DNA from: Coraliomargarita sp.
GTDB taxonomy: Bacteria; Verrucomicrobiota; Verrucomicrobiia; Opitutales; Coraliomargaritaceae
DNA length: 64,000 bases
Direction: 5' to 3'
NCBI GenBank assembly: GCA_965216325.1
Contig: OZ244160.1
Location: forward strand, 2,400,001-2,464,000
Within the stretch, counting starts at the first letter, position 1. The number at the start of each line of letters is the position of its first letter. Positions 53,395 through 58,043 of this stretch are shown one piece after another. A program made the position numbers and the translations under genes. Below the pieces are notes generated by a model. It ran no database searches. It was not told the DNA's origin and saw nothing but the letters and a program-made list of their open reading frames with translations.

Positions 53395-54321
53395 ATGACG
53401 GAGCCCGCTCCAGCCGACAATCTTCCAGAGCTAGATGCCTTTTGTGCTCACCTCACGTTGGAGCGCCGTGTCTCGGAATACACGGTGCGCAACTATCGTC
53501 ATGCGGTGGAGAACTTCGTTGCTTGTATGGAAGAGCAGGGCAAGTGGCGAGGTGAGTTCGGCGCAGTGCGTTCGCTGGAGGTTCGTTCCTTTCTGATCGA
53601 TCAAGGACGCCGTGTCTCACGCCGCACGCTGCATAACCATGTATCGGGTTTGCGGGCCTTTTATCGCTATCTGAGGCAACAAGGACAGGTGGAGAACAAT
53701 CCATTCACTGGAGTGGCGCTGCCGAAACTGGATAAGCCACTGCCGAAGTTCTTAACTGAAGGGCAAATGCAGGCCTTGTTGAATGCGCCCACTAAGCTGT
53801 GGAAAGAGGGCAAGCTTGGAGAGTTTGAAGCCTTCCGGGATAGTTTGATTCTGGAATTGCTCTACGGGGGCGGACTGCGTGTGAGCGAACTGTGTGCCCT
53901 AAATCATGGTCAGATTGATCTGGGGCAAGGAATTGCGCGGGTGCTGGGCAAGGGCCAGAAGGAGAGGCTGTGTCCCTTAGGGCCAGTTGCCGTCCAATGC
54001 TTGAAAACTTTCGTGGAGCGCTTCGACTTGAGCGCCGATCTCAGTTCTCCAGTGATTTCGCAGAGCAATGGTCGGCGCATGGAGCCGCGCCAGATCCAAA
54101 AGCTACTCAAAGTGCACCTAGCCGCGGCCGAGTTGCCGCTCGATATGACTCCGCATAAGTTGCGCCACTCCTTTGCGACGCACATGCTGGACAACGGTGC
54201 GGATTTGCGAGCAGTGCAGGAACTTCTCGGACACGCGAATCTCTCCACCACTCAGATCTATACCCACGTTTCAATCGCACGTCTGAAGGAGGCGCACAAG
54301 CAAGCCCACCCGAGAGCATAG
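53395..54321 (+). CDS. xerC: Tyrosine recombinase XerC-like
   Basis: SEYTVRNY, LPKFL, GLRVSEL, GKGQKER, TPHKLRHSFATHMLDNGADLRAVQELLGHANLSTTQIYTH. Confidence 0.9.
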   Translation: MTEPAPADNLPELDAFCAHLTLERRVSEYTVRNYRHAVENFVACMEEQGKWRGEFGAVRSLEVRSFLIDQGRRVSRRTLHNHVSGLRAFYRYLRQQGQVENNPFTGVALPKLDKPLPKFLTEGQMQALLNAPTKLWKEGKLGEFEAFRDSLILELLYGGGLRVSELCALNHGQIDLGQGIARVLGKGQKERLCPLGPVAVQCLKTFVERFDLSADLSSPVISQSNGRRMEPRQIQKLLKVHLAAAELPLDMTPHKLRHSFATHMLDNGADLRAVQELLGHANLSTTQIYTHVSIARLKEAHKQAHPRA

Positions 54322-54324
54322 CGT

Positions 54325-54870
54325 ATGCAGAATTCGAATACATATCAGCGGGCTGTTGAGCTAGCAAAGTCCGCATCTATTGGACTCGGGCGAGTGGAAT
54401 TTTTAATGAACCGTCCTGCAGAGGGCGAGCATGTGCCGGTGGATGCGCTGTATCTGGATGTGGTGCATGGGATACAAGGGGATCGCTGGGAGCGCACTGC
54501 ATGGCTGAAAACGGATACGGGTGCTCCAGATCCACGTGTTCAAGTGAGTCTGACGAATACCAGTGTGATTCGATGTTTTACGGGTGAGGCCTTAGAGTCG
54601 CAGTATCTTTGCGGTGATAATTGCTACGTGAACTTGAATTTGACGGAGGCTGTGTTGCCTGTCGGTAGTCGCTTACAAATCGGAAATGCAGTGATCGAAG
54701 TTAGTGATGTCGAAAACGATGCCTGTGGGAAGTTCGCGCAGCGCTTTGGTGTGGATGCTTTGAAGTGGGTGCGTCGGCCGGAGCACCTCTCCTTGCGCCT
54801 TCGAGGGATCTTTTGTCGTATCGAGCAGTCCGGTTGGGTTCGAGTGGGAGATCACATAAAGTTGTGCTGA
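54325..54870 (+). CDS. MOSC-domain protein
   Basis: GIQGDRW, GDNCYV, LPVGSRLQIG, ACGKFAQRFG, LRGIFCRI..GWVRVGD. Confidence 0.8.
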   Translation: MQNSNTYQRAVELAKSASIGLGRVEFLMNRPAEGEHVPVDALYLDVVHGIQGDRWERTAWLKTDTGAPDPRVQVSLTNTSVIRCFTGEALESQYLCGDNCYVNLNLTEAVLPVGSRLQIGNAVIEVSDVENDACGKFAQRFGVDALKWVRRPEHLSLRLRGIFCRIEQSGWVRVGDHIKLC

Positions 54871-54995
54871 TCTGTGGTATGTGTTGTGCGGTTTCTGTGG
54901 GGAGATTTTTTTGCAGGGCTAGGGTGTTTCACTTATTATTTGGTTGCGCCTGCAGGCTATCCTACTTGAGTCCGTGACATTATGAAGACTGTTTG

Positions 54996-55685
54996 CTATC
55001 TCTTCGTTGTCATTTTTTCAGTATTGCTTCTGCGTCTGGAAGCGGTGATCTCACCGAGGTAGGCACAGATCGCCCATGCAGTCACTTTCCCAACTCCGGT
55101 GACGCTCTGGATGATTTGGGATTGTTCACGCAGTTCTTCGTTGGACTGGATGCTTTGCTCTATGCGCTCTTCGAGTGCTTTGAGCTGTTCTTCAATGAAG
55201 GCGATCATCTTTTCGATCTCCGGCTCAAGCAGAGGTTCGGCCTTCTGTAGGCGTGTCTTCTCTCTTGTGAGCATCTCGGTGAGCTGGCTGCGCCGATCCA
55301 TGAGTGTTCCCAGTTCCTGACGACAGGGATCGTTTGGTCGCGTTGGTTCGGGCTGTCGCTGCTGAGCGTAGCGTAGAAGCATCTTCGCGTCGAGCGGATC
55401 GGTTTTGGCCTTGATCCCTTCGCTGCGGGCAAAGTCTCTGACTCTGGCAGGATTGAGAAGGGTGTAGGGAAGGTTCCGCTCTTGTAGCAAGGCAAGTAAA
55501 GGACGTTCATAGCCTCCGGTTGCTTCACAGACAAGGATCGTGCCTTCGAGCTGTTTGCTGAGTATCGAAAGGAGCTGTTGAAGCCCCTTCTGTTTATAGG
55601 GCAAAGCGCAGGCGTAATCGGGTGCTTGCACTTGCAGGCTGTCTTTTGCAATATCGACAGCGATGTAACTTTTGTGCTTGGTCAT
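54996..55685 (-). pseudogene. C-terminally truncated IS110-family recombinase
   Basis: DEDD residues in AVDIAK, VCEATGGYE and KTDPLDA; coiled coil; SVTGVGKVTA..LGEI, then IS110-like sequence stops before the conserved SG serine. Confidence 0.9.
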
Positions 55686-55993
55686 GGTTTGTATCGGTCT
55701 TGTAGAGATGAACTCACCGCCCTTGGACAGAGGTTCCGTCAACTGTTTGATATAAAACCAGAAGGCTTCCGAGGATCACTGCTCGCTAGTGAACTCGCCG
55801 CAAGGCAGTTCGAGACGGGGTTTGATCTCATCGGAAACCGTCCCGAGGCGGCGGCCACCGCTTCGGGACTACCTGGCACCTCCGACACTGCACCGTGACG
55901 AAGGCTTTTTCGAGCCCTTGCTCCGACGAGTTCTATAGACCCATTCTCGCAAGGGCTCAAAAAGCTGATTTATCATCGCGGGAAACCTACAAG
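55050..55993 (-). mobile_element. IS110 (IS621-like) element remnant: left end plus partial recombinase
   Basis: Left boundary inferred at the CT core 55993-55992 (CTTGTAG); right end is missing, so the lower boundary is approximate. Confidence 0.7.
55683..55975 (-). ncRNA. Putative IS110 bridge RNA
   Basis: Two 5' hairpins, then target-binding-like and donor-binding-like internal loops whose guides match the element's own junction. Confidence 0.7.
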
Positions 55994-56037
55994 ACTGGGT
56001 GTGCTGATAAAGGCCAAACCTCAGTCAAAACGGTGTT

Positions 56038-56111
56038 AGCTACAAAAAACACCATAAAGGTGTCGCTACGGTATCACGCAGCTTAGCTGTGCTTTTGTGT
56101 CTTTTTGTGGC
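56038..56111. repeat. Degenerate inverted repeat AGCTACAAAAAACAC / GTGTCTTTTTGTGGC
   Basis: Imperfect inverted arms downstream of ccsA. Confidence 0.4.
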
Positions 56112-56117
56112 GATCAA

Positions 56118-58043
56118 CTACGCGTCCGGCGTCGGTTCGACGTTCTGAGCAGCCACCAAGACACGCTTACGTTCGTTGTGATGCTTGGACTTGCCGAACG
56201 GGCTGCGCCAGATGCTATACGGTAGATTCGCAAGTAAAATAAAGATCACTTGGCTGCCGACGAAGATCATCAGCCACATAAAGCCGCTATCGGTGAAACC
56301 ATAACTGTGGAGGCCGACACCGAGTAGGTTGGTGCCAAACCAAGACCAGGCCGTGACAATGTTACCGCAGATCGCCAGACTCATCAGACCTCGCTCCTTG
56401 AGCACGCCGCCCCAGCGTGCGTGCAGGAAGATTGCGGTCATCAGCACGATCATGAGTGCGCCATTTTCCTTCGGATCCCAGCCCCAGAAGCGCCCCCAGC
56501 TTTGGTCGCCCCAGATGCCACCAAGGATGGTGCCGACCAGACTGAACAAGGCAGCGAAGCAGGTGATGCCGTAAACCATTGACCCAACTGCTCTGGCGTT
56601 CTCTTTGCTAAACTTGCTCGAGAGTAGGCCTAGGAGCACAAAGATGATTGCCAATGCCCCGGCGAAGAACATCGCCGAGTAGCCGAAGGTGATCACGGTC
56701 ACGTGGGTCGCGAGCCAGAAATTCGAGTCGAGCACCGCACGCATCATTTCTAGTGTGTCGCCACTCATGGATAGATGGTGTGCGATGATGAGGGTGCAGA
56801 AACCCACCAGTGAAGCCATGCCCGCACCGATGCCGTTCTTGAAGAAGGTTTCCAGAATGATGCCGAGGAGCACCGAGCCCCAGCCAACGAAGACCGCCGA
56901 GGAATAGAGGTTGGTGACGAAGACGCCGTAGCGATCCTGAATATACATGCGCGAGATCAGCGCGAAGGTATGTAGCAAGAAACTGGATACAAGGATGACG
57001 AGGGCGGCCTTGCTCAATTCCTGAGGCCAGCGCAGCCATGAGATGCAGACGATAAAAAATACCAAGACGTAGAGCTGCATAGTCAACGAGTAGAGTTGCA
57101 TGCCGTTGATGGTGTATTCGAAATGTACGCGGTCTACGGACTCCGGGAACTCGGCTTTGAAGCGCTCGCGCATTTCGCTCACAGTTTGGTTGAACATCTC
57201 GGCATCGCCGTTGCGGTAGGCCATGGTTAGCGATGCGTAATTCATCACGTAGGGGCTCATGCCCTTGCCCTGCATCGCATCGAGTAGCTCAAGGCCGACG
57301 TTCTTCCAGTCGGCCATGTGGTCCGCGGGCGGAACGGGTGGGATCACACGTAGGTGTGCGGTGCTGGAAAGACGCATGTAGTCTTCGCCAAAGTCGATAA
57401 AGGCGCGCAGCAGTTCGGCATCGTAGTCTTCGCCGGTTTGTTGCTTACGCAGTGCATCCAGTCCAGGGCCGATCATGCCAGTGTAGGTCGCATATTCGTC
57501 GACCAGCTTATCGAGGCGCGCGCCATCACCGATTGGGTGTAGCGAGTGCATGACACGGTTGTAAAGGTTGAGGCCGTTGTAGAGTTTGGCGAGCTGCTGC
57601 TCATAGGGCTGGCGCTGTTTTGGCTCGGGATTGATCTTCTCGAACAAGCTCTGGATCTCCGCGAAGTGTGGGCTGAGATCATTGAAGGAGTAGTGGCGTT
57701 GGCCCTCCTGTGCGAGGCCTTCGATGCCCAAGTCATCTGGAAACTCGATTTTGAATACGCGGTAGGTGTCGGCCAGTTCCGGCTTGAAGCTCAGATCCAT
57801 GAACCACTCCAGTGGTGAGAGCGTCACGCCCTCGGGGGTCTTGACCTTCTGTTGCTTGGCGAGCACCAGCAGGGTGTTGCGTGCAATCGCATCGATCGGT
57901 TTGATGCGTCCGCCCTCTTGCACCGACAATTCGCCAAAGGCATCGATGTCGAATTCGGTCTCGTTGGTCGATGGACGGAAGTGGCGCCCAAGCACCATCA
58001 GAACGAGCAAGGCGATAACACTGTAGATAATCGTCTTTTTCAT
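56118..58043 (-). CDS. ccsA: System II cytochrome c biogenesis protein CcsA/ResC (long form)
   Basis: VTNLYSS, NFWLATHV, WWD domain GGIWGDQSWGRFWGWDPKEN, GLHSYG. Confidence 0.9.
   Translation of the reverse strand: MKKTIIYSVIALLVLMVLGRHFRPSTNETEFDIDAFGELSVQEGGRIKPIDAIARNTLLVLAKQQKVKTPEGVTLSPLEWFMDLSFKPELADTYRVFKIEFPDDLGIEGLAQEGQRHYSFNDLSPHFAEIQSLFEKINPEPKQRQPYEQQLAKLYNGLNLYNRVMHSLHPIGDGARLDKLVDEYATYTGMIGPGLDALRKQQTGEDYDAELLRAFIDFGEDYMRLSSTAHLRVIPPVPPADHMADWKNVGLELLDAMQGKGMSPYVMNYASLTMAYRNGDAEMFNQTVSEMRERFKAEFPESVDRVHFEYTINGMQLYSLTMQLYVLVFFIVCISWLRWPQELSKAALVILVSSFLLHTFALISRMYIQDRYGVFVTNLYSSAVFVGWGSVLLGIILETFFKNGIGAGMASLVGFCTLIIAHHLSMSGDTLEMMRAVLDSNFWLATHVTVITFGYSAMFFAGALAIIFVLLGLLSSKFSKENARAVGSMVYGITCFAALFSLVGTILGGIWGDQSWGRFWGWDPKENGALMIVLMTAIFLHARWGGVLKERGLMSLAICGNIVTAWSWFGTNLLGVGLHSYGFTDSGFMWLMIFVGSQVIFILLANLPYSIWRSPFGKSKHHNERKRVLVAAQNVEPTPDA

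Follow-up and report, generated by a model that had tools for sequence, protein, structure and literature searches.

In the present study we analyzed a 64,000-nucleotide stretch of the genome of a Coraliomargarita species (contig OZ244160.1, positions 2,400,001 to 2,464,000), hereafter called the window, and found that positions 55993-55686 of its minus strand are the left non-coding end of an IS110-family, IS621-like insertion sequence (IS). This end carries a bridge RNA gene, which is followed by a truncated recombinase gene, and the segment 55993-55044 as a whole is, with high confidence, the remnant of such an element of ~1250 bp that is most likely recent and inert. Positions are those of the window and features are read on the minus strand unless stated otherwise. 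A preliminary description of the locus had proposed a bridge RNA with its own target specificity which is now orphaned, and every testable part of this reading held. The strings and coordinates quoted there were all correct when checked on the minus strand and when the alignment columns were mapped to the window.

The ends of the element were placed by means of relatives, for which a protein-guided scan of species-representative genomes yielded 80 loci and a scan of metagenomes another 80. Nine copies of a homologous element of ~1250 bp are present in the Opitutales genome OY829953.1. They are identical up to CT followed by TGTAGGTTACC on the left and up to CATGACACAATTG-CT (ending in ACAATTG-CT) on the right, and carry unrelated sequence outside both CT ends. 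Because these copies are unrelated beyond those points, we placed the ends at the CT core. The boundary that had been suggested for the window, the CT of 55993-55992, coincides exactly with the points at which the multi-copy relatives diverge, namely CT before TGTAGG on the left and ACAATTG-CT on the right. In the nine-copy genome CT is present once per junction, without inverted repeats or a longer duplication, and in the window the right boundary is deleted. The string ACCCAGT-CT-TGTAGGTTT starts at 56000 in the window, and the distance from the core to the recombinase ATG (55685-55683) is 311 nucleotides (nt). Moreover, CTTGTAGG opens all 15 aligned non-redundant left ends, including that of the window.

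Core-to-core lengths of the homologs ranged from 1210 to 1371 bp with one exception of 1553 bp (L036, CBDDEL010000017.1, 2184-3738), which contains ~300 bp extra. Multi-copy relatives were also detected in the Opitutales genomes CBDANS01 and OZ252288.1, and the recombinases of the relatives are 41-67% identical to that of the window over the part that the window keeps. The closest full-length relative, L003 (G013:C19, a 1269-base contig), showed 67% identity by tblastn; its recombinase of 310 amino acids carries both PF01548 and PF02371, the latter at residues 190-272. A near-identical full-length copy was not found, as the best hits reached 55% in the representative genomes, 54% in the metagenomes and 68% (L003) in the search for relatives. 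A related element with 76% DNA identity across the left end is located in a sister genome (G001:C189; L006, L009 and L097), where the match to the recombinase is broken into two pieces that overlap but differ in frame, as would be expected of a copy with a frameshift.

The left end has the layout of a bridge RNA gene, i.e. a non-coding gene in which 5' stem-loops are followed by two stem-loops with large internal loops. Its single-sequence fold reached -133.7 kcal/mol (z = -5.47), and 0 of 100 shuffles folded equally well. The 15 homologous left ends align over their whole length and were described by a model of 73 pairs in 10 helices, which comprises three 5' hairpins as well as a target-loop and a donor-loop unit, each with an outer and an inner stem. 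With this model 91.4% of the cells were paired, compared to 36.5-48.3% when the 3' partners were slid by 1-3 columns. Compensatory changes on both sides were observed in 43 of the 73 pairs, and none of 500 shuffles attained any of the observed measures. RNAalifold on 15 left ends gave 65 pairs, 39 of them with compensatory changes. Of the 111 columns conserved among the other 14 sequences, the window deviated at 0; the others deviated at 1-15. Besides, we built a covariance model of the two guide-bearing units from 14 homologs with the window excluded. This model matched 55686-55838 end to end (136.4 bits, E = 4e-33), which was its sole match in the window and in the 3.06-Mb genome.

Covariation in the 15 homologs supported hairpin A (55965-55904), both stem/internal-loop/stem units and their inner stems, all of which had been drawn by eye in the preliminary description. 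Both sides change in 9 of the 17 pairs of the main stem of hairpin A, in 5 of 5 pairs of hairpin B1 (with 92% of its cells paired) and in all 13 pairs of hairpin B2. Of the hairpin B that had been proposed at 55885-55831, the core 55869-55840 was retained, whereas the outer pairs were not supported by covariation; their bases belong to the hairpin 55903-55880 and to the base of the target stem (55838-55832 with 55771-55765). Only one extra 5' hairpin relative to IS621 had been counted. Since three hairpins lie 5' of the target loop here and the IS110 consensus bridge RNA has one 5' stem-loop in the passages describing it (PMC11208160), this number has to be revised to two. In the minimum free energy structure GCCAGG was paired to the beginning of the donor stem; this pairing was discarded, being absent from the conserved structure. 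In two copies of OY829953.1 (L018 and L026) small insertions or rearrangements lie between hairpin A and the target-binding stem-loop, and their guide loops are unchanged.

The internal loops carry the guides. In the target loop, the left guide with the core, ACCCCGT-CT (ACCCCGTCT, 55821-55813), matches the window's flank and core ACCCAGT-CT (56000-55992) at 8 of 9 positions, and the right guide TAGCGAG is located at 55788-55782; as the right flank is deleted in the window, this guide was compared with uninterrupted copies of the target repeat. In the donor loop, the left guide ACAGTTG lies at 55746-55740 and the right guide CTCTACAAG at 55707-55699. The CTACAAG of the latter (55705-55699) is the exact reverse complement, at 7/7 positions, of the element start CTTGTAG (55993-55987). 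Handshake dinucleotides are present as well, with CA at 55781-55780 in the target loop, complementary to donor positions 6-7 (TG), and AC at 55698-55697 in the donor loop, complementary to target positions 6-7 (GT). The donor predicted from these guides was ACAGTTG-CT-TGTAG. Its left half cannot be read in the window, where the right end itself is gone, and in the homologs the final 7 nt of the right end are identical to the left donor guide. For 13 of 14 homologs, the exact 7-nt guide with CT was found again at a distance of 1210-1553 nt downstream from the left end, and each of these sites follows conserved right-end sequence.

Guides and flanks were also compared across homologs, a comparison that had been set beforehand as a test of the reading. 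In OY829953.1 the 5' and 3' sides of the first internal loop read TCATCGT-CT and GACGAAG, respectively, and the nine sites read TCATCG(C/T)-CT (one TCTTCGT-CT) before the element and CT-TCGTC (one CT-TTGTA) after it. The right donor guide of this group has one mismatch to the left end. In fixed registers, the left guide matched its own flank at 85 of 91 positions in 13 elements (non-cognate 2.44 of 7) and the right guide at 42 of 60 positions in 12 elements (non-cognate 1.58 of 5); 0 of 100000 shuffles attained either sum. As loop lengths vary by one base among the metagenome loci, a sliding register was used with the same rule for the controls. The left guide then reached a mean of 8.0 of 9 versus 4.63 for non-cognate flanks (24 distinct elements) and the right guide 5.87 of 7 versus 4.16 (23 distinct elements), and 0 of 20000 shuffles attained the observed sum on either side. 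Guide/flank covariation is therefore strong on both sides of the element.

This covariation also bears on the question whether the folded region is merely a 5' leader that controls translation of the recombinase, with coincidental guide matches. The 3' strand of the donor-loop outer stem abuts the recombinase ATG, and the structure could therefore also occlude translation initiation. However, the loops change together with the insertion flanks (24 elements on the left, 23 on the right) while the stems are kept. A pure leader is contradicted by this finding because a leader would not track DNA outside the element, and we regard this explanation as barely conceivable. An artefact of target-site duplication is excluded because both flanks share just the 2-nt core.

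The target predicted from the guides, ACCCCGT-CT-CGCTA, was found as ACCCCGT-CT-CGCTC in an uninterrupted repeat of the sister genome G001. The left flank of the window matches copies of this repeat in G001:C17, G002:C27 and G002:C15 at 84-88%, and the flank could be aligned with five uninterrupted copies, of which the window's own genome contains two. Besides the G001 site, the first and second copies read ACCCGGT-CT-CGCTT and ACCCCGT-CC-CGCCT in G002, and ACCCCGT-CT-CACTT and ACCCCGG-CT-CGCCT in the window's own genome. Because the right half-site is gone from the window, the repeat copies provide independent support for the right target guide. The repeat is an unannotated intergenic sequence of ~150 nt with G+C-rich hairpins, which occurs in three copies in the window's genome (window 56039-55994; L116, G000:C1 near 2959393; L117, near 1232136) and in more copies in sister genomes (further loci L111-L113). 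None of five copies matched in an Rfam search.

As had been described, the recombinase is truncated. The open reading frame (ORF) of the window matches PF01548 alone (2.3e-22, 79.9 bits versus a cut-off of 29), and the Pfam search did not find PF02371 (Tnp domain) in it. Its product could be aligned with the IS621 transposase chain 8wt6_A (328 residues) over chain residues 8-219, with E = 1.5e-27. In this alignment the D, E, D and D of VDIAKD, CEATGGY and KTDPLDAK meet the IS621 motifs, and the DEDD-aligned residues, whose catalytic roles are described for IS621 in passages of PMC11208158, are conserved. The catalytic serine of IS621 is given there as S241 and as essential; the alignment ends at residue 219, before this position. 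Three full-length relatives (308-310 amino acids) align in tblastn only up to their residue 216-218, which corresponds to window position 55032, and tblastn of these relatives over the whole window gave nothing beyond 55032. The 215 homologous codons are free of stops, and the frame then continues through 14 unrelated codons to a stop at 54998-54996. Missing from the element are ~300 bp, i.e. the Tnp domain with the ~92 last codons and the right end. A search of the window for the right end ACAGTTGCT with up to one mismatch gave 12 matches versus 13.1 expected, none of them near the locus. Since PF02371 and the catalytic serine are missing, the window copy is the remnant of a family member and not a functional member, and it is almost certainly inactive.

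The truncation ends in a microhomology. At the junction, TGAGATCACC encodes the conserved recombinase residues GEIT (the homologs encode GE(I/V)T at this point) and occurs in native sequence of G001 as well. The similarity of a G001 contig (C12) to the window is confined to 53400-55053, where the identity is 97%, and above 55053 the two are unrelated. The G001 bases upstream of TGAGATCACC are unrelated to the element, and the 1.5 kb upstream of it in G001 were not found in the window's genome. Moreover, G002 contains an ORF of ~290 codons on the opposite strand between the same two neighbouring genes. On the simplest reading of these sequences, a microhomology-mediated deletion would have taken the 3' end of the element together with the right repeat half and one or more genes. 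The ~170 nt between the junction and a MOSC-domain gene (54871-55043) are native DNA with 97% identity to G001 and without further element sequence. A 56-nt contig (depth 9) of sequencing run X6, which bears the same organism label and comes from another sample, shares 55068-55097 with the window and continues with 26 unlike letters. Its origin may be a different IS110 gene that has this helix-hairpin-helix motif too, or a variant arrangement.

The state of the remnant raises the possibility that it was exapted, either as a serine-less protein which together with the bridge RNA acts as a dead RNA-guided binder of the repeat copies or as an RNA-only regulator. Such a role would fit the RNA without any deviation at the conserved columns, the frame that is open over all 215 homologous codons and the two further target-repeat copies of the genome, which match the left guide at 7/7 and 6/7 positions, and a preprint contains a passage linking IS110 transposases to Nop5-type RNA-guided proteins (10.1101/2024.06.21.599552). 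However, only one genome carries the remnant, in one copy, promoter prediction in situ gave nothing, a terminator-like hairpin lies upstream, and the frame ends in 14 unrelated codons. In addition, G001, which is 97% identical alongside, keeps the undeleted native sequence at the junction and thereby points to a very recent event. Because the deletion is so recent, the intactness of RNA and frame needs no selection. Exaptation thus appears very unlikely to us, and we are equally doubtful of its more specific form, in which the serine-less fragment and the preserved RNA would represent an early stage of Nop5-type domestication and bind the remaining ACCCCGT-CT repeats. A weaker variant would see the clade-specific 5' extension of 130 nt (hairpins A and B1) as a functional extra domain of these bridge RNAs.

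When the two ends are joined, the TTGCNT of the right end is located 17 nt upstream of TAGGTT in 12 of the 13 homologs that have a right end (exception L027). From this spacing we infer that TTGCNT and TAGGTT would act as a junction promoter, which agrees with the passages on IS621 in which the junction of the joined ends forms a promoter. The -10-like TAGGTT after the core that had been pointed out earlier is indeed there, and its spacing is kept in these 12 homologs; its partner, however, is gone. The hexamer of the window is now without a partner because the -35 element lay in the lost right end. No sigma-70-like promoter was predicted in situ in 55600-56250, and the terminator-like hairpin at 56064-56048 would limit read-through into the bridge RNA. 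For integrated IS621 copies, only weak expression of the bridge RNA is described in a passage of a 2026 paper (PMC13626964). None of the RNA runs searched contained the stretch: four metatranscriptome runs shared 4-6% of its sampled words, and four runs with the organism's label shared none. Runs X5 and X6 gave contigs covering the locus, which are probably DNA of the source organism, and X9 and X12 gave nothing.

No second copy of the element was found in the genome, since a DNA search returned the locus alone. A degenerate donor-loop pattern found the locus and one unrelated match, and its backwards control also gave one match. Ten other ORFs of the genome (G000) match PF01548 above the cut-off, and another IS110-family recombinase of the same genome might use the bridge RNA in trans, the more so as bridge RNAs work in trans from a separate promoter according to a passage of PMC11208160. 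Against this, the three ORFs compared with the window recombinase by BLASTP showed no significant similarity (E >= 0.11, the best being 0.11), and none of the ten was found with the window recombinase as query at E <= 0.001. Moreover, the donor that the RNA specifies, ACAGTTG-CT-TGTAG, needs a right end which is no longer in the genome, and the native promoter is lost. Use in trans is therefore highly improbable, and the genome appears to contain no cognate recombinase elsewhere. With the catalytic domain and the right end missing and no significant similarity to the three IS110 ORFs compared, the term orphaned is appropriate for this RNA. Nine of the ten other ORFs share a score of 31.1 bits and an open frame of 377 codons, and two that were compared start identically; the tenth has 389 codons and 41.5 bits. 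Examples on G000:C1 (L102-L110) are located at 904288-904716, 1109440-1109868 and 2769593-2770018.

Several points weigh against the interpretation as an IS621-type remnant that was cut short by a recent deletion. Rfam release 15 gave no bridge-RNA match in 54500-56600 at E <= 10, and membership therefore rests on our own model and on the features described in the papers. The same search returned two weak plus-strand matches (SR6 antitoxin, E = 0.35; snoZ247, E = 5.3), which fall far short of their gathering scores, overlap the recombinase gene by position and were dismissed as chance. The window's own flank has an A for C relative to the guide and also lacks one C that other repeat copies carry. 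Of 162 loci examined, 106 had no CTTGTA[GA]G left-end motif and 16 were unparsed; the covariation counts are therefore based on the 40 parsed loci, which gave 26 distinct loop pairs. In several single-copy homologs agreement with the right flank was poor, at 1-3 of 5 positions (L013 1, L014 2, L033 2 and L036 2). The deletion scenario depends on one sister assembly that is 80% complete (G001) and on synteny in the more distant G002, and the cytochrome c assembly locus of G001 itself was not recovered in that assembly. Finally, the perfectly conserved RNA and the open frame of 215 codons fit a recent event and are at the same time compatible with retention by selection.

The IS621-type remnant can be explained by the following sequence of events, modelled on the IS621 mechanism. 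The intact element would excise as a circle, which would join the -35 box of the right end to the -10-like TAGGTT of the left end. From this joined promoter the ~290-nt left end, with RNA ends that are presumed here, would be transcribed into the bridge RNA and bound by the recombinase. In the first internal loop, ACCCCGT-CT and TAGCGAG would pair with the two strands of the target ACCCCGT-CT-CGCTA, and in the second, ACAGTTG and CTACAAG would pair with the joined ends of the element, ACAGTTG-CT-TGTAG. A tetramer of the DEDD/serine recombinase would then exchange strands at the CT core. The window copy presumably inserted in this way into the short intergenic repeat that follows a cytochrome c assembly gene. 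A later deletion between the 10-bp microhomology in the recombinase gene and native DNA would have removed the ~92 last codons with the catalytic-serine Tnp domain as well as the right end and its -35 box, and also the right repeat half and one or more neighbouring genes. What remains is a sequence-perfect bridge RNA gene without an active recombinase, a native promoter or a second recombination site.

These findings indicate that an uncharacterised compact (~1250-bp) clade in Verrucomicrobiota, which also carries a longer, unstudied 5' region, follows the published bridge-RNA rules of IS621 base for base. The target could be read from a single decayed copy, and the corresponding empty site was subsequently located in a sister genome. 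The 26 distinct natural pairs of target and donor loops with known flanks constitute a small resource for the engineering of bridge recombinases. For annotation, the entry for the locus should name a truncated element of the IS110 family and its bridge RNA gene, and the deletion next to it should be marked. The features are compiled in Table 1. On the minus strand the element is preceded, in this order, by the cytochrome c assembly gene (Pfam PF01578), which ends at 56118, the terminator-like hairpin and ~45 nt of the repeat.

Table 1. Features of the truncated element and its surroundings, in window coordinates.
Feature	Position	Strand	Basis
Terminator-like hairpin, 3' of the cytochrome c assembly gene and 5' of the target repeat	56048..56064	-	Prediction
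Left half of target, 5' part of the ~150-nt intergenic repeat, ending in ACCCAGT (56000-55994)	55994..56039	-	Matches to repeat copies
CT core dinucleotide, left boundary of the element	55992..55993	-	Homologous copies lose identity exactly there
-10-like hexamer TAGGTT (putative)	55984..55989	-	TTGCNT spacing in homologs
5' hairpin A, lower stem of 17 bp, apical part nearly invariant in sequence	55904..55965	-	Covariation
Small 5' hairpin B1	55880..55903	-	Covariation
5' hairpin B2, supported core of the hairpin B first proposed	55840..55869	-	Covariation
Target-binding stem-loop, inner stem 55811-55791	55765..55838	-	Covariation, guide/flank covariation, covariance-model match
Donor-binding stem-loop, inner stem 55736-55710	55686..55759	-	Covariation, covariance-model match
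Truncated recombinase gene with DEDD RuvC-like domain, coiled coil and first ~25 Tnp residues	55044..55685	-	PF01548, tblastn, IS621 alignment
Deletion junction, 10-bp microhomology TGAGATCACC	55044..55053	-	Also in native DNA of sister genome G001

The best-described relative is IS621 of Escherichia coli, an IS110-family element with a 177-nt bridge RNA, for which we refer to passages of Durrant et al. 2024 (PMC11208160) and Hiraizumi et al. 2024 (PMC11208158). The IS621-type arrangement of target loop and donor loop and the CT core, on which the preliminary description had been built, are both present in the window. The recombinase is homologous to that of IS621 (E = 1.5e-27 to PDB 8wt6), and as in those passages the RNA gene occupies the left end and precedes the recombinase gene, with one or more 5' stem-loops followed by target-binding and donor-binding stem-loops that have internal loops. 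In each loop the left guide reads in the sense of the left half-site and CT, while the right guide complements CT plus the right half-site. The handshake dinucleotides after the right guides (PMC11208158), the insertion into a repeated intergenic element and the tolerance of one mismatch between left guide and natural target are shared as well. Of the IS621 donor ACAGTAT-CT-TGTAT quoted in the preliminary description, only positions 6-7 (AT) and T10 were confirmed by passages of PMC11208158. In contrast to IS621, the left end of the window measures 311 nt from core to ATG and has three 5' hairpins, the full-length relatives have 308-310 amino acids compared to the 328 residues of the IS621 chain in 8wt6, and the host is verrucomicrobial. 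The target is ACCCCGT-CT-CGCTA here, whereas IS621 encodes ATCGGGC-CT-AC in the passages describing it. Moreover, the copy analyzed here is truncated and cannot be active.

L003 and the multi-copy relatives start with the same left end CTTGTAGG as the window and agree with it in their hairpins and loop architecture, and the donor-binding loop of L003 is nearly identical to that of the window. Unlike the window copy, they are complete, with a length of ~1250 bp and a right end of the form TTGCNT...ACA(G/A)TTG-CT, and they have other target guides, e.g. ACCTCCC-CT-GCACT in L003 and TCATCGT-CT-TCGTC in OY829953.1. These differing guides show natural reprogramming of the target loop within the clade. 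The IS1111 group has a recombinase of the same DEDD and serine type and likewise chooses its targets by an RNA guide. However, its guide, the seekRNA known from the work of Siddiquee and colleagues in 2024, reportedly lies downstream of the recombinase gene, whereas the guide RNA of our element is located upstream, in the left end, as in the IS110 group. The element is of a known and well-characterised kind that involves no new mechanism, and its longer 5' region, smaller recombinase and own target are variations within the family.

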